13,080 bases of DNA, from IMG/VR virus record IMGVR_UViG_2563366976_000005. One strand, 5' to 3'. Numbering within the stretch: position 1 is the first letter of the stretch; each line of letters starts with the position of its first letter. The stretch comes from a virus (Duplodnaviria; Heunggongvirae; Uroviricota; Caudoviricetes). Below, one piece after another: positions 1,418 through 7,778 of this stretch. The notes beneath the pieces are model-generated. The model made no database searches. It was given only the letters and a program-made list of their open reading frames with translations, and was not told the origin of the DNA. The position numbers were made by a program, and so were the translations under genes.

Positions 1418-2488
1418 TTATTTGATTTCAATTTTGTCCCACTCCCTGCCTCTGTCATCACGATACTGTGATGCCATGGTGTCCGACTTATGCCCGAGAA
1501 GATGTTGAGCAAACTTATCGCTTATCTGCTTCTCATAGAGTCTTGCAGACAAACTGCGCAACTCGTGAAAGGTAGGCGGATCCCCTTCGAAGGAAAGACC
1601 TGATGCTTTTCGTGCGCGCATAAAATACCTTGATACTGTGCCGGATGAAAGCGGTTCGCGACGAGTAGATGCAATTATGGTTTCTCCGCCAAGAATCTCT
1701 TTGCATTTATCAAGTGTTTCCTTCATTGATATTCCGAGAGCATCAACATGCAATGCTGTTGGGATGGCAATTTTTACGCCTGTTTTGCTTTGCTCGACAT
1801 AAAGATATCCATCTACGATATCAGACCACTTCATTTCGCATAAATCACCAACTCGTTGCCCGGTAACAACAGCCAGTTCCATTGCAAGTCTGAGCCAACA
1901 TGGTGATGATTCTGCTGCTTGATAAATTTTCAGGTATTCGTCAGCCGTAAGTCTTGATCTCCTTACCTCTGATTTTGCTGCGCGAGTGGCAGCGACAGGG
2001 TTTGTTGTTATATGGCCTTCAGCTATTGCCTCTCGGAATGCATCGCTCAGTGTTGATCTGATTAACTTGGCTGACGCCGCCTTGCCCTCGTCTATGTATC
2101 CATTGAGCATTGCCGCAATTTCTTTTGTGGTGATGTCTTCAAGTGGAGCATCAGGCAGACCCCTCCTTATTGCTTTAATTTTGCTCATGTAATTTATGAG
2201 TGTCTTCTGCTTGATTCCTCTGCTGGCCAGGATTTTTTCGTAGCGATCAAGCCATGAATGTAACGTAACGGAATTATCACTGTTGATTCTCGCTGTCAGA
2301 GGCTTGTGTTTGTGTCCTGAAAATAACTCAATGTTGGCCTGTATAGCTTCAGTGATTGCGATTCGCCTGTCTCGGCCTAATCCAAACTCTTTACCCGTCC
2401 TTGGGTCCCTGTAGCAGTAATATCCATTGTTTCTTATATAAAGGTTAGGGGGTAAATCCCGGCGCTCATGACTTCGCCTTCTTCCCAT
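1418..2488 (-). CDS. int: Tyrosine integrase, lambda Int type (356 aa)
   Basis: 356-aa ORF beginning MGRRRSHERRDLPPNLYIRNNGYYCYRDPRTGKEF, matching lambda Int in sequence and length as I remember it; its 3' end lies in the P' arm of att; it overlaps xis as in lambda. Confidence 0.96.
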   Translation of the reverse strand: MGRRRSHERRDLPPNLYIRNNGYYCYRDPRTGKEFGLGRDRRIAITEAIQANIELFSGHKHKPLTARINSDNSVTLHSWLDRYEKILASRGIKQKTLINYMSKIKAIRRGLPDAPLEDITTKEIAAMLNGYIDEGKAASAKLIRSTLSDAFREAIAEGHITTNPVAATRAAKSEVRRSRLTADEYLKIYQAAESSPCWLRLAMELAVVTGQRVGDLCEMKWSDIVDGYLYVEQSKTGVKIAIPTALHVDALGISMKETLDKCKEILGGETIIASTRREPLSSGTVSRYFMRARKASGLSFEGDPPTFHELRSLSARLYEKQISDKFAQHLLGHKSDTMASQYRDDRGREWDKIEIK

Positions 2489-2684
2489 TTCTGATCCTCT
2501 TCAAAAGGCTACCTGTTACTGGTCGATTTAAGTCAACCTTTACCGCTGATTCGTGGAACAGATATTCTCTTCCATCCTTAACCGGAGGAGGGAATATCCT
2601 GCATTCGCGCACCCATCGACGAACTGTTTCAAGGCTTCTTGGGCGTCGCTGGCGAGCGTTCCACTCCTGAAGTGTCAAGTACAT
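2466..2684 (-). CDS. xis: Excisionase, lambda Xis type (72 aa)
   Basis: 72-aa ORF MYLTLQEWNARQRRPRSLETVRRWVRECRIFPPPVKDGREYLFHESAVKVDL..., overlapping the int start by 23 bp as in lambda. Confidence 0.94.
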   Translation of the reverse strand: MYLTLQEWNARQRRPRSLETVRRWVRECRIFPPPVKDGREYLFHESAVKVDLNRPVTGSLLKRIRNGKKAKS

Positions 2685-2708
2685 CGCAAAGTCTCCGCAA
2701 TTACACGC

Positions 2709-2731
2709 AAGAAAAAACCGCCATCAGGCGG
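2709..2731 (-). terminator. Candidate intrinsic terminator for leftward transcription, just upstream of xis
   Basis: Stem ccgcc(2718-2722)/ggcgg(2727-2731) with a 4-nt loop; on the - strand the hairpin is followed by UUUUUUC (complement of gaaaaaa, 2711-2717). Confidence 0.4.
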
Positions 2732-2900
2732 CTTGGTGTTCTTTCAGTTCTTCAATTCGAATATTGGTTACGTCTGCATGTGCTATCTGCGCCCACAGCA
2801 TCCAGTGGTTATAGCAGTCGCTGATGTTCTCGGCTTCGATAACTCTGTTGAATGGTTCTCCATTCCATTCACCTGTAACTCGGAAGTGCATTTATCATCG

Positions 2901-2960
2901 CCATAAAACAAAACTCGCCGTAGCGAGTTCAGATAAAAGAAAACCCGCACTCGGCGGGTT
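2901..2960 (-). terminator. Tandem pair of candidate intrinsic terminators for leftward transcription
   Basis: Hairpin A: aacccgc(2942-2948)/gcgggtt(2954-2960), followed on the - strand by UUUCUUUUAUCU. Hairpin B: aactcgc(2912-2918)/gcgagtt(2923-2929), followed on the - strand by UUGUUUUAUGG. Both are 7-bp perfect stems. Confidence 0.5.
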
Positions 2961-3239
2961 CGCATTCGTTCAAATTGCGTTTACTTCTTGGCGTTCTGTT
3001 CATCCATATCGATATACCATGGGTTGCTTCCCTTGGGCATGTTTAACGACTGCTCGCGATAGTATCTGATGCGCTCCATGAAATACTCGCGTGAGTGCTC
3101 AGGTTGCTCTCATGATACCTGCTCAGTGATAACAGGTATGTTAAGGCGCTCTCTGTACTCCATGCCTGATGCTGCAAGGTCAACGTTTACCTTGTTCTGT
3201 TTTTCTTTCGATTTCTCGGCGATGTTATGCCTGACATTG

Positions 3240-3524
3240 TCAACCCGCCTCCTTCTGAACATAACGGTTATAAATCAGTCCCTGAGGGCCATAAGGAAGC
3301 GGGATGTGCAACTCCTCTGGTTCAGAAACTATCCATTCCCCGGCCATCTCCGCTGGAGAGGTAATGATAAGTTGTTTGCTAATAAAAGGACCACTCCTCT
3401 CAACAACAAGCTTACCATCTTCATTAATAAAAGCTTGGATGTCAGGTGTGCTTCCACACTTGGTGATGCAGCGTTTGAACATTTTGTGTCCCCCCATTTT
3501 ATGGACGGGGTAATTATAACACAT
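3240..3524 (-). CDS. Small protein in the ea8.5 position (Ea8.5-like by synteny); start uncertain (ATG at 3524, or ATG at 3482 behind a GGGGGGA Shine-Dalgarno giving 80 aa)
   Basis: 94-aa ORF between xis and the accessory block, similar in size to lambda Ea8.5 (93 aa from memory). Called by position and length only; I cannot confirm sequence identity. Confidence 0.5.
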   Translation of the reverse strand: MCYNYPVHKMGGHKMFKRCITKCGSTPDIQAFINEDGKLVVERSGPFISKQLIITSPAEMAGEWIVSEPEELHIPLPYGPQGLIYNRYVQKEAG

Positions 3525-3608
3525 TGAAATATAGTAATATTTGACGTAGATTTCTTTTGATCTATAAGCGATTTTTTAATGCTTTTAAGTTATAAATACT
3601 TGTTTTCA

Positions 3609-4184
3609 TCACCCATCTTGCTGCGGTGCTACTATTGAAAAGTACTCACACCCTTTAGCCCAAATAGTTTTGATAGTTGTCCAACTGACTGGAACCTTGA
3701 TTTCGATTCTTCCGCTGCCGTCACAAGTTTCGCAATCATCATCACCAAAGCATTCCGGGCAGCTTATAAACGTAGTTTCTGAAAATTCACCGGATAGCAC
3801 ACCCTTAGCGCCGTTCTCAGCGGTTAGTTTCTTCGGCACTATAACCCAACCATCCGGAGTTACCGGAGAATTGCCATTTATATCGAAGTTTGGCTCTGCG
3901 TCCTGAACCAGGAGGATGTAACCATTCTTGGCAGTATCAAGTTCTAACGCCTCGGTGACGGTACCGAAATAGCGATTACCTAAATCCGCATCACAAGTGC
4001 TTACATCAATGGAAACCTCCATGCCTTCGATTAATTCTGGCAAGTTGTAAGTTTGGCTTACAGGTTCTGCTCCCAGTGATGCCAGTGCAATTCGTGCCAG
4101 TTCCATTTGTTCGCCACGAGTAAGCCCGTTTTCAAGCGGATTTTTAATGAACAATTCAATACGTTCTTTGGTAATAGTGGTCAT
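3609..4184 (-). CDS. Hypothetical acidic protein with a C-terminal CxxC-x5-CxxC zinc-ribbon-like cluster (191 aa)
   Basis: ATG at 4184-4182 behind AAGGA; starts 10 bp after the stop of the TGT/DpdA-like gene; rich in Asp/Glu; CPECFGDDDCETCDGSGR resembles a CxxCxGxG zinc-finger unit. No family recognised. Confidence 0.75.
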   Translation of the reverse strand: MTTITKERIELFIKNPLENGLTRGEQMELARIALASLGAEPVSQTYNLPELIEGMEVSIDVSTCDADLGNRYFGTVTEALELDTAKNGYILLVQDAEPNFDINGNSPVTPDGWVIVPKKLTAENGAKGVLSGEFSETTFISCPECFGDDDCETCDGSGRIEIKVPVSWTTIKTIWAKGCEYFSIVAPQQDG

Positions 4185-4194
4185 TTGTTAGTCC

Positions 4195-4950
4195 TTAAAC
4201 TGCTAGTTGCAATTGCATTTCAAAGCGGTCGCGTTGTTCACAATACGCAAGAGAACCAGGGCTATTGTGTGCCTCAATCCGTTCTACCATTAATGCTGCG
4301 CGTGTCTCTTTACTTGCAGGTGCATAAGCCCCAGACCAGGCTTTATCAATACCGATGTTTCGAGCGACGTTCGTACTATCTGCGCTGGCTAAGGGTAATT
4401 TTGTGAATATCAGCGGATTTAACATGCGCAATCCATGTAGTTTCGTAACCGGCTGACCATGCCCATCAACAATGTGACGAATCAGGTCTTTCATTCTGGC
4501 TACCGCAAGAGTTGGGCGCTTTACGTCATAGTCGCCACAACTACCGATAGCCACTCGCGGAAACTCATTGCACAAATGAATAAATCGCTCGTCACTTTCA
4601 TTCATGTGCCACACTGGAACGCCAGCTAGTTTTCCGTGAGGCCACTCATTCAGAAGCGCATCATTTTCCTCCTCTCCGCCATCAATAACATCCGGGATAA
4701 TGGCAAAATCGAATCCTGGGTGATTCTTCCAGCGAGCAACAAACTCGTAGTAATCGCTCCAGTCGATTTTGTTTTTGCCAGCTGCTTTCCAGGCGGTGAA
4801 TGCACCGTTGTCCAGCGCGAACGACTGACAGTATTCAGCCGCGAGATTGATCTGGCCTGAATGCGCAAAACTGATAAACGCATGTCGCCCTTTCCATGCT
4901 CTCATTGCGCACGTATCAGGAGTAATAGGCCCACCGTGGTAGTGAATCAT
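4195..4950 (-). CDS. tRNA-guanine transglycosylase (TGT)-superfamily protein lacking the C-terminal zinc subdomain; DpdA-like candidate 7-deazaguanine DNA transglycosylase (251 aa)
   Basis: Start chosen at ATG 4950-4948 (AAGGAG Shine-Dalgarno, 1 nt after the upstream stop) rather than the ORF-track start at 4992. Motifs line up with bacterial Tgt as I remember it: FALDNGAF vs TDSGGFQ, DFAIIPDVIDG vs DIVMIFDEC, KLHGLR...ASADSTNVARNIG vs YLMGVG...DMFDCVMPTRNARNG, with all three catalytic Asp positions retained. No CxCxxC...H zinc site. Confidence 0.7.
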   Translation of the reverse strand: MIHYHGGPITPDTCAMRAWKGRHAFISFAHSGQINLAAEYCQSFALDNGAFTAWKAAGKNKIDWSDYYEFVARWKNHPGFDFAIIPDVIDGGEEENDALLNEWPHGKLAGVPVWHMNESDERFIHLCNEFPRVAIGSCGDYDVKRPTLAVARMKDLIRHIVDGHGQPVTKLHGLRMLNPLIFTKLPLASADSTNVARNIGIDKAWSGAYAPASKETRAALMVERIEAHNSPGSLAYCEQRDRFEMQLQLAV

Positions 4951-4951
4951 C

Positions 4952-5359
4952 TCACTCTCCTTTGATGCGAATGCCAGTAGCGCGGATTGCATCGATGACT
5001 TCAGAAACTTTGTATGCCATTACCGTTTGGTAATCATCGTGAAAATCTGTTCGATGAAGCATGCTGCTACGTTCCGGGAGCAGTATTTCCCGCGCTTCCA
5101 GTTCTGCAATGCGCTTTTTTGCTGCTTCCAGTTCATCCAGTAATTCCAGCACGGTAGCCGGATTAGCCTTGGCAACAAAATCCCGGACTGGCTTACAATC
5201 AATCTCCGCAATGGGTTGATACGATGTGTAGCCATGCTGTCTTGTATAACTACCGTGACGAATAACGAAAAAATCACCATTTATTTTTTTAGCCTGCCAC
5301 TTATCTTCACCGGCTTTCTCTGCCGCTTCACGCAGTGCCTGAGAGTTAATTTCGCTCAC
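4952..5359 (-). CDS. Ea22-like (Ead/Ea22 family) protein, 135 aa, GTG start
   Basis: N-terminus MSEINSQALREAAEKA and C-terminus ...GIRIKGE resemble the conserved ends of Ead/Ea22-family proteins as I recall them. GTG start (5359-5357) overlaps the upstream TGA in a GTGA arrangement. Family assignment is from memory. Confidence 0.55.
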   Translation of the reverse strand: MSEINSQALREAAEKAGEDKWQAKKINGDFFVIRHGSYTRQHGYTSYQPIAEIDCKPVRDFVAKANPATVLELLDELEAAKKRIAELEAREILLPERSSMLHRTDFHDDYQTVMAYKVSEVIDAIRATGIRIKGE

Positions 5360-5577
5360 GTCGAACCTCTCTGTTTACTGATAAGCTCCAGATCTTGCTG
5401 GCAACTGGCACAAGTCCGACAACCCTGAACGGCCAGTCGTCTTCGTTCATCTATCGGATCGCCACACTCACAACAATGAGTGGCAGATATAGCCTGGTGG
5501 TTCAGGCGGCGCATTTTTATTGCTGTGTTGCGCTGTAATTCTTCAATTTCTGATGCTGAATCAATTATGTCTGCCAT
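5356..5577 (-). CDS. TraR/DksA-family C4 zinc-finger protein (73 aa)
   Basis: 73 aa with CCECGDPIDERRRLAVQGCRTCASCQ: two CxxC pairs spaced as in F-plasmid TraR / DksA C-terminal zinc fingers; the length equals TraR. Confidence 0.8.
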   Translation of the reverse strand: MADIIDSASEIEELQRNTAIKMRRLNHQAISATHCCECGDPIDERRRLAVQGCRTCASCQQDLELISKQRGST

Positions 5578-5624
5578 CTTTCATTAATCCCTGAATTGTT
5601 GGTTAATACGCTTGAGGGTGAATG

Positions 5625-5653
5625 CGAATAATAAAAAAGGAGCCTGTAGCTCC
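5625..5653 (-). terminator. Candidate intrinsic terminator (leftward) between the 93-aa ORF and the TraR-like gene
   Basis: Stem ggagc(5639-5643)/gctcc(5649-5653), loop ctgta; on the - strand followed by UUUUUUAUUAUU. Confidence 0.35.
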
Positions 5654-5675
5654 CTGATGATTTTGCTTTTCATGT

Positions 5676-5957
5676 TCACCGTTCCTTAAAGACGCCGTTC
5701 AACATGCCGATCGCCAGGCTTAAATGAGTCGGTGTGAATCCCATCAGCGTTACCGTTTCGCGGTGCTTCTTTAGTACGCTACGGCAAATGTAATCGACGT
5801 TTTTATCCGGAAACTGCTGTCTGGCTTTTTTGATTTCAGAATTAGCCTGACGGGCAATGCTGCGAAGGGCGTTTTCTTGCTGAGGTGTCATTGAACAAGC
5901 CCCATGTCGGCAAGCATAAGCACACAGAATATGAAGCCCGCTGCCAGAAAAATGCAT
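5676..5957 (-). CDS. Hypothetical protein occupying the lambda orf61 position (93 aa from ATG 5957, or 71 aa from ATG 5891)
   Basis: ORF directly downstream of the orf63-like gene but without the overlap I remember for lambda orf61; no recognisable domain. Confidence 0.45.
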   Translation of the reverse strand: MHFSGSGLHILCAYACRHGACSMTPQQENALRSIARQANSEIKKARQQFPDKNVDYICRSVLKKHRETVTLMGFTPTHLSLAIGMLNGVFKER

Positions 5958-5967
5958 TCAGTGGTTG

Positions 5968-6159
5968 TCATACCTGGTCTCTCTCATCTGCTTCTGCTTT
6001 CGCCACCATCATTTCCAGCTTTTGTGAAAGGGATGCGGCTAACGTATGAAATTCTTCGTCTGTTTCTACTGATATTGGCACAAACCTGACTCCAATTTGA
6101 GCGAGGCTATGTGCCATCTCGATACTCGTTCTTAACTCAACGGGAGATGCTTTGTGCAT
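5968..6159 (-). CDS. Lambda orf63-like small protein (63 aa)
   Basis: 63 aa; overlaps the orf60a-like gene by 28 bp, the same length and overlap I remember for lambda orf63. Confidence 0.55.
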   Translation of the reverse strand: MHKASPVELRTSIEMAHSLAQIGVRFVPISVETDEEFHTLAASLSQKLEMMVAKAEADERDQV

Positions 6160-6314
6160 ACAGCTCCCCGTTTATTATTTATCTCCTCAGCCAGCCGCTG
6201 TGCTTTCAGGGGATTTCTGATAACAGAAAGGCCGGGAAATACCCAGCCTCGCTTTGTAATGGAGTAGACGAAAGTGATCGCGCCCACCCGGATATTATCG
6301 TGAGGATGCGTCAT
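6132..6314 (-). CDS. Lambda orf60a-like small protein (60 aa from ATG 6314-6312)
   Basis: ATGA overlap with the exo stop; 60 aa, as remembered for lambda orf60a. The ORF track extends it 2 codons upstream to 6320. Confidence 0.55.
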
Positions 6315-6991
6315 CGCCATTGCTCCCCAAATACAAAACCAATTTCAGCCAGTGCCTCGTCCATTTTTTCGATGAACTCCGGCACCATCTCGTCAAAACT
6401 CGCCATGTACTTTTCATCCCGCTCAACCACGACATAATGCAGGCCTTCACGCTTCATACGCGGGTCATAGTTGGCAAAGTACCAGGCATCTTTTCGCGTC
6501 ACCCACATGCTGTACTGCACCTGGGCCATGTAAGCCGACTTTATGGCCTCGAAACCACCGAGCCGGAACTTCATGAAATCCCGGGAGGTAAACGGGCATT
6601 TCAGCTCAAGGCCATTGCCGTCACTGCATAAACCATCGGGAGAGCAGGCGGTACGCATACTTTCGTCGCGATAGATGATCGGGGATTCAGTAACATTCAC
6701 GCCGGAAGTGAATTCAAACAGAGTTCTGGCGTCGTTCTCGTACTGTTTTCCCCATGCCAGCGCCTTAGCATTAACTTCCGGAGCCACACCGGTGCAAACC
6801 TCAGCCAGCAGGGTGTGGAAGTAGGACATTTTCATGTCAGGCCACTTTTTTCCGGAGCGGGGTTTTGCTATCACATTGTGAACTTCTGAAGCGGTGATGA
6901 CGCCGAGCCGTAATTTGTGCCACGCATCATCCCCCTGTTCGACAGCTCTCACGTCGATTCCGGTACGCTGCAGGATAATGTCCGGTGTCAT
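6311..6991 (-). CDS. exo: Lambda exonuclease (Red-alpha), 226 aa
   Basis: 226-aa [68 protein letters not shown]..., matching lambda Exo in sequence and length as I remember it; overlaps the bet stop by 4 bp. Confidence 0.96.
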
Positions 6992-7773
6992 GCAGCCACC
7001 TTCTGCTCAGTGGCTTTCTGTTTCAGGAATCCAAGAGCTTTCACTGCTTCGGCCTGTGTCAGTTCTGACGATGCGCGAATGTCGCGGCGAAATATCTGGG
7101 AACAGAGCGGCAATAAGTCGTCATCCCATGTTTTATCCAGGGCAATCAGCAGAGTGTTAATCTCCTGCATGGTTTCATCGTTAACCGGAGTGATGTCGCG
7201 TTCCGGCTGACGTTCTGCAGTGTATGCGGTATTTTCGACAATGCGCTCGGCTTCATCCTTGTCATAGATACCCGCAAATCCGAAGGCCAGACGGGCACAC
7301 TGAATCATGGCTTTATGCCGTAACATCCGTTTGGGATGCGACTGCCACGGCCCCGTAATTTCTCTGCCTTCGCGGGTTTTGAATGGTTCGCGGCGGCATT
7401 CATCCATCCACTCGGTAACGCAGATCGGATGATTACGGTCCTTGCGGTAAATCCGGCATGTACAGGATTCATTGTCCTGCTCAAAGTCCATGCCATCAAA
7501 CTGCTGGTTTTCATTGATGATGCGGGACCAGCCATCAACGCCCACCACCGGAACGATGCCATTCTGCTTATCAGGAAAGGTGTAAATTTCTTTCGTCCAC
7601 GGATTAAGGCCGTACTGGTTGGCAACGATCAGTAATGCGATGAACTGCGCATCGCTGGCATCACCTTTAAATGCCGTCTGGCGAAGAGTGGTGATCAGTT
7701 CCTGTGGGTCGACAGAATCCATGCCGACACGTTCAGCCAGCTTCCCAGCCAGCGTTGCGAGTGCTGTACTCAT
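6988..7773 (-). CDS. bet: Bet (Red-beta) single-strand annealing protein, 261 aa
   Basis: 261-aa [67 protein letters not shown]..., matching lambda Bet as I remember it. Confidence 0.96.
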
Positions 7774-7778
7774 CCGTT

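Follow-up and report, generated by a model that had tools for sequence, protein, structure and literature searches.

The exo–xis region of lambda and of the Stx phages has been described as a conserved core of genes, orf60a–orf63–orf61–orf73–ea22, with a set of variable genes downstream of it (PMC8614690). Singleton DpdA proteins, in turn, form a clade in γ-proteobacterial phages and are assumed to rely on host preQ0, their hosts generally having the queuosine pathway (PMC6884629). Both subjects meet in the DNA analysed here, a stretch of 13,080 nucleotides (IMG/VR virus record IMGVR_UViG_2563366976_000005, hereafter the window) that carries four minus-strand genes packed between positions 3609 and 5577 and encoding a TraR-like, an Ea22-like, a DpdA-like and an acidic zinc-ribbon protein. 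A first-pass annotation, made from the sequence alone, had viewed this block as a cargo cassette swapped into a conserved lambda-like backbone. The explanation that we favour, with a probability of roughly 0.72, is that the distal part of the exo–xis region has been exchanged relative to lambda, that its genes assort as independent modules, and that one of them would specify a DpdA-type modification of DNA.

The locus is the exo–xis region of the literature, which is transcribed from pL, at its hypervariable distal end in an E. coli prophage. With lambda and the Stx phages it shares the position between exo and xis, the minus strand, the pL operon, a core of 97–98% DNA identity, the GTGA overlap and the upstream terminator. 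A variable gene set after ea22 is likewise what is seen when lambda is compared with Φ24B and 933W. The difference lies in the composition of that set: an Ea22 variant, dpdA, a zinc-knuckle gene, orf94 and a putative theta-like pseudogene replace the lambda ea22 body and ea8.5, and none of the phages treated in the exo–xis papers that we consulted has this combination.

The architecture is ordinary lambdoid mosaicism, of which it offers a clean example in a region already described as a conserved core with a variable tail. Crossovers at gene ends or domain borders, and short identical stretches among otherwise different phages, are common to the window and to other lambdoid phages, whose modules are known from work by Hendrix, Casjens and Clark to recombine at conserved linkers. 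The structural observation as such changes nothing. Its value is practical and consists of a base-level crossover map and of the identification of those genes of the block that belong to the backbone.

Base-level junctions against lambda

By blastn, two long stretches of the window aligned with lambda, 1333–2946 with lambda 27727–29340 (98.6%) and 5318–8157 with lambda 30354–33193 (97.5%), and a 29-nt island (window 4949–4977, lambda 29844–29872) covered the final eight ea22 codons and TGAGAT. The base-by-base check placed the right crossover inside ea22 after codon 14 (5317/5318), where both phages read GTGAGCGAAATTAACTCTCAGGCACTGCGTGAAGCGGCAGAG and are divergent thereafter. The left crossover, at 2946/2947, falls in the T-tract of the terminator hairpin at 2961–2941; this hairpin differs in sequence between the window and lambda, and the second hairpin after it is common to both. 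The exchanged segment is 2947–5317, i.e. 2,371 bp compared with 1,013 bp in lambda. It extends beyond the reported block, taking in orf94 and the theta-like open reading frame (ORF) and then a private terminator, with the left crossover lying 660 nt past the 3' end of the block. The parts of the region, in the direction of transcription, are the following:

5637–5655, minus strand: terminator-like hairpin and U-tract upstream of orf73/TraR (−10.2 kcal/mol, z −3.9), lambda backbone
5356–5577, minus strand: orf73, a TraR/DksA-family C4 zinc-finger protein of 73 aa (PF01258, phrog_54, lambda Orf73 orthologue)
5318–5359, minus strand: first 14 codons of ea22 with a GTG start, common to lambda (blastn and junction alignment)
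4952–5359, minus strand: Ead/Ea22-like protein of 135 aa (PF13935 at 64.1 bits, cutoff 27; phrog_1667, E 2e-56)
4947–4977, minus strand: conserved linker, ea22 3' end plus TGAGAT(G) (29-nt identity to lambda 29844–29872)
4195–4950, minus strand: homologue of the singleton DpdA type (TGT superfamily), 251 aa (phrog_887, profile homology)
4185–4194, minus strand: 10-nt linker GGACTAACAA from dpdA to the zinc-finger gene, the same in E. coli IAI1 and in an O121 prophage
3609–4184, minus strand: acidic mosaic protein of the Ea22/EaA group, 191 aa (phrog_60, E 1e-41)
3525–3608, minus strand: AT-rich 84-nt gap from the zinc-finger gene to orf94, the sole break in the tight packing
3240–3524, minus strand: orf94 (phrog_9613), non-lambda segment, identical in IAI1
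2981–3262, minus strand: ORF similar to DNA polymerase III theta (HolE) and broken by an in-frame TGA, as its translation shows, non-lambda segment
2941–2961, minus strand: terminator hairpin private to the variable segment (−12.0 kcal/mol, z −2.0), with the left junction in its T-tract
2911–2930, minus strand: second terminator hairpin (−11.9 kcal/mol, z −4.2), backbone, common to lambda
2724–2891, minus strand: orf55 (lambdap35 homologue), backbone (95% aa identity to lambda; phrog_676)

The stretch around the upstream terminator (5620–5665) was 100% identical to lambda 30656–30701. Orf73/TraR, the GTGA overlap, the ea22 start and this terminator are all lambda sequence; hence, the four of them belong to the backbone and not to a cassette. 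Beyond the start, the Ea22-like allele matches lambda ea22 at the DNA level only in its first 14 and last ~8 codons, and the two proteins are 58% identical over 31 aa. The lambda alignment that the first-pass annotation had called for thus supported it in one respect, as a longer insert with extra non-lambda genes does lie between ea22 and xis, and the distance from the exo stop to the xis start is indeed 3,626 nt (2685–6310) against 2,269 nt in lambda (29079–31347). The boundaries that it proposed were not upheld, since the edges of the block differ from the crossovers, and neither was the idea of a cassette.

The local packing had been read accurately. On the minus strand the TraR (5356–5577) and Ea22-like (4952–5359) genes overlap by GTGA, a single nucleotide separates the Ea22-like stop from the DpdA-like ATG at 4950 (…GGAGAGTGAGATG…), and the 10 nt of GGACTAACAA separate the DpdA-like stop (4195) from the zinc-finger ATG (4184). 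The ORF list contains an alternative upstream ATG for the DpdA-like frame, at 4992; we have taken 4950 as the start because all homologues begin with MIHYHGG. Packing as tight as this is usual in phage early operons and in itself no statistical anomaly. Within the 84-nt gap at 3525–3608, a simple scan gave no minus-strand promoter-like match.

Candidate terminators flanking the block were also recovered, as hairpins with a T-tract on the minus strand at 5655–5637, 2961–2941 and 2930–2911, and on the transcribed strand each has a GC-rich hairpin that runs into a U-tract, which would fit the intrinsic (rho-independent) type. Between 2400 and 6400, 12 sites of this kind were found versus 4.4±2.3 in shuffled sequences. 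In lambda, transcription from pL is antiterminated by N, so that terminator-like sites need not delimit the transcript. The comparison of base composition with the flanking genes, which had been suggested as a check on the block, gave no boundary at its edges for GC, GC at third codon positions (GC3) or GC-skew. GC3 was 0.39–0.45 in the block genes, 0.41 in int and 0.41 in orf63, being higher only in exo, bet and gam (0.56–0.61).

Insertion sequence (IS) elements have repeatedly inserted here in relatives. IAI1 has ISSen4 exactly at the left mosaic junction (~2946), strain 582 has an IS2 copy within the block, and in the O121 prophage TraR is split by an element of the IS3 family (coordinates L002 7146–8266, L019 4343–5556 and NZ_CP120568).

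Predicted TGT-type fold and conserved putative catalytic residues of the DpdA-like protein

The name given to the third gene of the block proved correct, by profile homology and by motifs. Its product matched phrog_887, "queuine tRNA-ribosyltransferase" (E 2e-103), which is also the label that RefSeq already gives to the homologues in phages BTP1 and SfI. Scans of Pfam, NCBIfam and PADLOC returned no match, and the missing Pfam match is uninformative because validated phage DpdAs give none either. The family comprises >7,800 clusters at 90% identity (1,519 representatives at 50% identity), with a length of ~250 aa, and members from Vibrio, Aeromonas and Shewanella retain 65% identity. In phage genomes, tblastn found 93% identity in BTP1/SPN3UB and 68% in SfI, followed by the DpdAs of Pantoea phage MED16 (38%, E 2e-34), Salmonella phage 7-11 (36%, E 2e-24) and Pseudomonas phage Iggy (26%, E 1e-5). 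A 61-member profile of the family aligned by hhalign with the validated Iggy DpdA over 151 columns (probability 98.9%, E 3e-17), pairing LDNGAF with LDSGAF, VWH with CFH, KLHGLR with KVHGFG and SADST with SCDSS (window family and Iggy, respectively).

An AlphaFold model (AF2) built from 61 diverse sequences reached a pLDDT of 92 and predicts a TGT-like (β/α)8 barrel; a run on 18 close homologues (pLDDT 57) was discarded in its favour. The structural matches in BFVD were phage "queuine tRNA-ribosyltransferases". The putative active site consists of D47, D87, H115, G136, H172 and D191–S192. In the 61-sequence alignment D47, H172, D191 and S192 were invariant and D87, H115 and G136 at least 90% conserved, and comparison with the validated DpdA1 of Iggy and Vid5 gave D47, H115, G136, H172 and D191–S192 as invariant. 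The DpdA of S. Montevideo uses Asp95 as acid/base, Asp130 and His181 in base recognition, a Gly-rich loop and Asp256 as nucleophile (PMC10164549). The residues of the window protein would fit this catalytic set, with the equivalence to PDB 7UI4 judged from motif and strand position, and are likewise compatible with the Asp/His pair of Cap10, a TGT-like protein of type IV CBASS (PDB 9NTN).

Compared with the validated DpdA1 enzymes of 9g, CAjan and Iggy and with the S. Montevideo DpdA (7UI4), the window protein has in common the predicted TIM-barrel TGT fold, D47 (in LDNGAF), the putative base-reading His H115, the Gly-rich β6 loop with G136 and D191 (in ADS). It is shorter than DpdA1, without the N-terminal ~45 residues and the C-terminal helices, and differs from bacterial DpdA by having neither the insertions nor the Zn site nor a DpdB partner. 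Two further differences from the validated DpdAs are the shifted second Asp (D87 versus the D90-equivalent) and the lack of a linked folE/queCDE cluster. No preQ0/G+ genes (folE, queD, queE, queC) were found in the window or beside the homologues inspected.

Sequence comparison thus makes the protein a real member of the TGT/DpdA superfamily, filed in the phage DpdA family, and would place it, more narrowly, among the γ-proteobacterial phage proteins that Hutinet et al. 2019 defined as "singleton DpdA" and in the "DpdA/TGT_1" cluster of the MED16 paper. The singletons of 7-11, MED16 and the Salmonella phages SEN1/SW9 resemble it in size (~250 aa), TGT fold and shared motifs, at 36–38% identity (7-11 and MED16 giving the values above), as well as in the absence of phage preQ0-synthesis genes and in having a queuosine-proficient γ-proteobacterium as host. 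The window subfamily differs in forming its own very large, highly conserved group and in residing in prophages of temperate phages (lambdoid, P22-like and P2-like) of Enterobacterales, Vibrio and Aeromonas; MED16, by contrast, has been described as lytic (PMC8306585). A literature search turned up no open-access article on DpdA in lambdoid phages.

The stand-alone DpdA-type enzyme probably introduces 7-deazaguanine into DNA. By analogy with lambda, the genes would be read early from pL, under antitermination, after induction or infection, and Orf73 may damp host rRNA transcription. E. coli makes preQ0. Having no precursor genes of its own, the enzyme would use the 7-deazaguanine precursors of the host queuosine pathway, which E. 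coli FolE, QueD, QueE and QueC could supply, and would replace a small fraction of the guanines in phage DNA by preQ0 or by ADG, the amide of preQ0. The reaction would be a double displacement of the TGT/DpdA type, with Asp191 as the putative nucleophile and Asp47 as the putative acid/base. The level of modification would probably be low, as it is in 7-11, with dADG at 0.02% of G (PMC6884629), and in MED16, with dADG at 0.13% of G and the restriction enzymes tested not being blocked (PMC8306585).

Several points weigh against this proposal. Chemistry data come, at the closest, from phages whose DpdAs share just 36–38% identity with it, and in these the modification was at trace level and did not affect the restriction enzymes tested. 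The base-recognition Asp is D87, three residues before the Asp of DpdA1 (D90-equivalent). Searches of PDB sequences by phmmer and hmmsearch, started from the protein, two profiles and the Iggy DpdA, reached no solved TGT or DpdA, and Foldseek against PDB gave generic TIM barrels only. As regards expression, co-transcription from pL would follow from the lambda precedent, and the N/antitermination region of the prophage differs from that of lambda. Finally, the family alignments contain no conserved cysteines and no structural Zn site, which in bacterial DpdA takes the form CXCX2CX22H (PMC10164549). The DpdAs of Iggy and Vid5 are also devoid of it, so that the site defines bDpdA/TGT and not phage DpdA.

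Alternatively, the TGT-fold enzyme may have another job than the bulk modification of phage DNA, be it Cap10-like binding or transfer of an amide-linked 7-deazaguanine on a protein, action on host tRNA or, as a defence by the prophage, removal or exchange of deazaguanines in the DNA of superinfecting phages. In favour of this, Cap10 was the top structural match, the amide is the form made by the relatives, and the second Asp stands at a shifted position. We nevertheless judge this unlikely, as the homology detectable in sequence points to the phage DpdAs and not to Cap10, with which there is no detectable similarity; moreover, there is no Cap9/QueC-like gene, CD-NTase or effector near the window dpdA, and the context is a phage early operon instead of a defence operon. 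For a defence role in particular, PADLOC gave no match, and the preprint on DNA-glycosylase defence involves no TGT-like proteins. Equally improbable, in our estimate, is a subfamily that installs 7-amido-7-deazaguanine directly, at rare specific DNA sites or in a non-DNA target, and does not serve as an anti-restriction bulk modifier. Such an activity would explain why relatives show dADG only in traces, which in MED16 left the restriction enzymes tested unhindered, why the fold is closest to Cap10, a binder of an amide-linked deazaguanine, and why the base-recognition Asp is shifted.

With DpdA-type modification of DNA kept as the preferred reading, the window flags a stand-alone transglycosylase of this type in a genetically tractable lambda-like E. 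coli prophage. The lambda-like background and the queuosine-proficient host make it a convenient system for asking what singleton DpdAs do, a question explicitly left for later by the authors of the 2019 and 2021 DpdA papers.

Independent distribution of the block genes

The genes of the block assort as independent modules and not as one co-inherited four-gene cassette. Among 5,426 complete E. coli genomes, the whole 1,969-bp block was present (≥80% coverage) in 29, IAI1 included, and the dpdA allele in 201 (~4%). The joint of the ea22 3' end with the dpdA 5' end occurred in 131 genomes, that of the dpdA 3' end with the first ~120 nt of the next gene in 166, and the complete zinc-finger gene in 40. 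The linkers were far more widespread: the Ea22 3' end with TGAGATG was found, in any context, in 818 genomes (~690 of them without the dpdA joint), and the 10-nt linker with the N-terminal module of ~40 codons in 1,246. Both elements mostly occur without dpdA. In those cases DUF551, DUF550 or another gene comes after the Ea22 3' end; the N-terminal module runs into DUF551, DUF550/dATP-dGTP pyrophosphohydrolase or other C-termini.

A dpdA-less prophage of strain p11B joins the ea22 stop via TGAG-ATG straight to a gene with the N-terminal module (…GGAGAGTGAGATGAACGCTATAACCAAAGAACGT…). In the window, the dpdA ORF and the 10-nt spacer fall exactly between the two points joined in p11B, which identifies dpdA as a clean single-ORF insertion module. 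Its surroundings change accordingly from phage to phage. The order is eaE–Ea22-like–dpdA–(10 nt)–eaA/DUF550 in Salmonella phage BTP1, orf60a–dpdA–orf61-like…DksA-like in SfI, which has no Ea22 and no zinc-finger gene, TraR–Ea22–dpdA–DUF550–ea8.5-like–orf55–xis–int in an O121:H19 prophage at torS and DUF550–dpdA–orf–xis–int in a Yersinia prophage. In P2-like prophages of Pectobacterium and Aeromonas, dpdA adjoins gpA.

Two neighbourhoods recur. A TraR/DksA gene overlaps the dpdA start in the Pectobacterium P2-like prophages, with gpA following (L014–L016, 2780–3750), and the Aeromonas prophage (L013) has the order gpA then dpdA; proximity of TraR and dpdA is seen in unrelated phage types, SfI and phage Eeyore among them. 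A DUF550/dATP-dGTP pyrophosphohydrolase gene stands directly beside dpdA in three prophage backgrounds, namely Yersinia (L010 2504–3756), BTP1 (L003 3501–5232) and O121 (L019 2193–3756). A nucleotide-pool enzyme next to a guanine transglycosylase may be meaningful, or may merely reflect a shared hypervariable region.

These distributions bear on the view that the TraR, Ea22-like, DpdA-like and zinc-ribbon genes form one co-inherited, co-functional cargo cassette, bounded by terminators and replacing ea22. The genes are tightly coupled, the string is identical in the 29 genomes with the whole block, TraR, Ea22 and DpdA stand together in the O121 prophage at a different attachment site, and a TraR homologue abuts dpdA in P2-like prophages. 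The junction mapping had, however, already largely refuted this view, as canonical lambda sequence accounts for TraR, for its GTGA overlap with ea22, and for both the start of ea22 and the upstream terminator, and the crossovers lie inside ea22 and past the 3' end of the block. The counts for dpdA and for the whole block (201 versus 29), the exchange of the fourth gene for DUF550 or others elsewhere, and the dpdA of SfI without two of its supposed partners leave a cassette quite improbable.

In the exchange that we propose instead, the core (orf60a, orf63, orf61, orf73/TraR and the ea22 start) is kept and the distal part, 2947–5317, has been replaced relative to lambda. The modules of this part are the alternative Ea22 body, the single-ORF dpdA, a shuffled zinc-knuckle protein of the Ea22/EaA family, orf94, the putative theta-like pseudogene and a terminator of their own. 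The exchange would proceed by recombination, either through short linkers conserved at the ends of genes or, within a gene, at the border of a domain. Three such joints are visible. The first follows codon 14 of ea22, the second is at its 3' end (…GGAGAGTGAGATG) and the third is at GGACTAACAA-ATG with the N-terminal module. The second of them, the ea22 3'-end linker, is a recombination joint common to hundreds of prophages. With conserved linkers at the gene ends, the tight spacing of the genes becomes a by-product and not the mark of a functional cassette.

The last gene of the block, 3609–4184, encodes a protein with an isoelectric point of 4.2 and a C-terminal CPEC-x5-CETCDGSG zinc knuckle, for which Pfam, NCBIfam and PADLOC gave no match. 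It is laid out as the shared N-terminal module of ~40 aa, a middle part that is fused elsewhere to Ead/Ea22 or DUF551 proteins, and the knuckle. In homologues, the C-terminal ~165 residues occur fused to Ead/Ea22 domains (PF13935) and the N-terminal ~155 residues to DUF550 or DUF551 domains; such comparisons indicate that the gene is itself a shuffled mosaic of the Ea22/EaA family. That its product could be a dedicated DpdA partner, supplying in trans the structural Zn subdomain that the DpdA-like family, with its lack of conserved cysteines, does not have in contrast to the bacterial CXCX2CX22H site, is suggested by the 10-nt distance between the genes and is very improbable, as the knuckle C-terminus accompanies dpdA in at most 40/201 E. 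coli genomes (co-occurrence counts on which it was rejected as the source of the missing domain), is not beside dpdA in the BTP1, SfI, O121, Yersinia, Aeromonas or Pectobacterium prophages, is fused to Ead/Ea22 domains regardless of dpdA, and would be dispensable to judge from the validated phage DpdA1 enzymes, which work alone without a Zn site.

In many genomes RefSeq names this protein "molecular chaperone DnaJ". We consider the name an over-annotation because the protein has no J domain and a single CXXC…CXXCXGXG element, not four CXXCXGXG repeats; against PDB, its match to the DnaJ Cys-rich domain was weak (E 7.3).

Prophage setting and neighbouring genes

The ORF list and family scans showed a ybhC fragment at the left end of the window, followed, all on the minus strand, by int, xis, orf55, small genes, orf63 (DUF1382), orf60a (DUF1317) and the recombination genes exo, bet and gam. 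The integration genes, both assigned from the ORF list and family scans, are:

1418–2488, minus strand: int
2466–2684, minus strand: xis (Pfam Exc)

In E. coli IAI1, a prophage adjoining ybhC has a near base-for-base identical arrangement. This match and the adjacency of ybhC identify the window as a lambda-like prophage at the lambda attachment site. The first-pass remark that orf60a/orf63 and int/xis are lambda-like agrees with the Pfam matches (DUF1317, DUF1382 and Exc) and with 97–98% DNA identity. The order orf60a–orf63–orf61–orf73–ea22 is kept between exo and xis on the pL strand (Pfam DUF1317, DUF1382, zf-dskA_traR and Ead_Ea22), and the immunity and replication region to the right of the recombination genes differs from lambda.

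The orf73 product scored 36.4 bits against PF01258 (cutoff 24.9), is 97% identical in amino acids to the lambda orf73 frame and has a C4 zinc finger (CxxC-17-CxxC) and an N-terminal DxxDxA motif (MADIIDSA; D3, D6, A8). Lambda Orf73 binds RNA polymerase, shuts down rRNA and ribosomal-protein promoters and raises phage yield (PMC9239242). On the strength of the 97% identity, the window protein is predicted to be a secondary-channel regulator of RNA polymerase and an inhibitor of rRNA promoters. Ea22 proteins have been reported to favour lysogeny (PMC10834534).

For the theta-like ORF, the IAI1 annotation is "DNA polymerase III subunit theta, internal stop". Such an ORF may be a pseudogene, or else a candidate for read-through or recoding. 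A 93-aa ORF at 5676–5957 (minus strand, phrog_303) has lambda orf61 (30839–31024) as its counterpart. Lambda is matched in one frame by its N-terminal half and in another by its C-terminal half, which makes orf61 as annotated in lambda look frameshifted or shortened relative to the window ORF, and in IAI1 PGAP calls a 71-aa ORF at the equivalent position.

A predicted lipoprotein of 126 aa (MRKILIAAMMASVLAGC…) is encoded at 8838–9218 on the minus strand, in a low-GC island (GC ~0.37–0.40) between the recombination genes and the repressor. It is moron-like and absent from lambda, and the IAI1 relative has other genes (DUF4411/ImmA) in its place.

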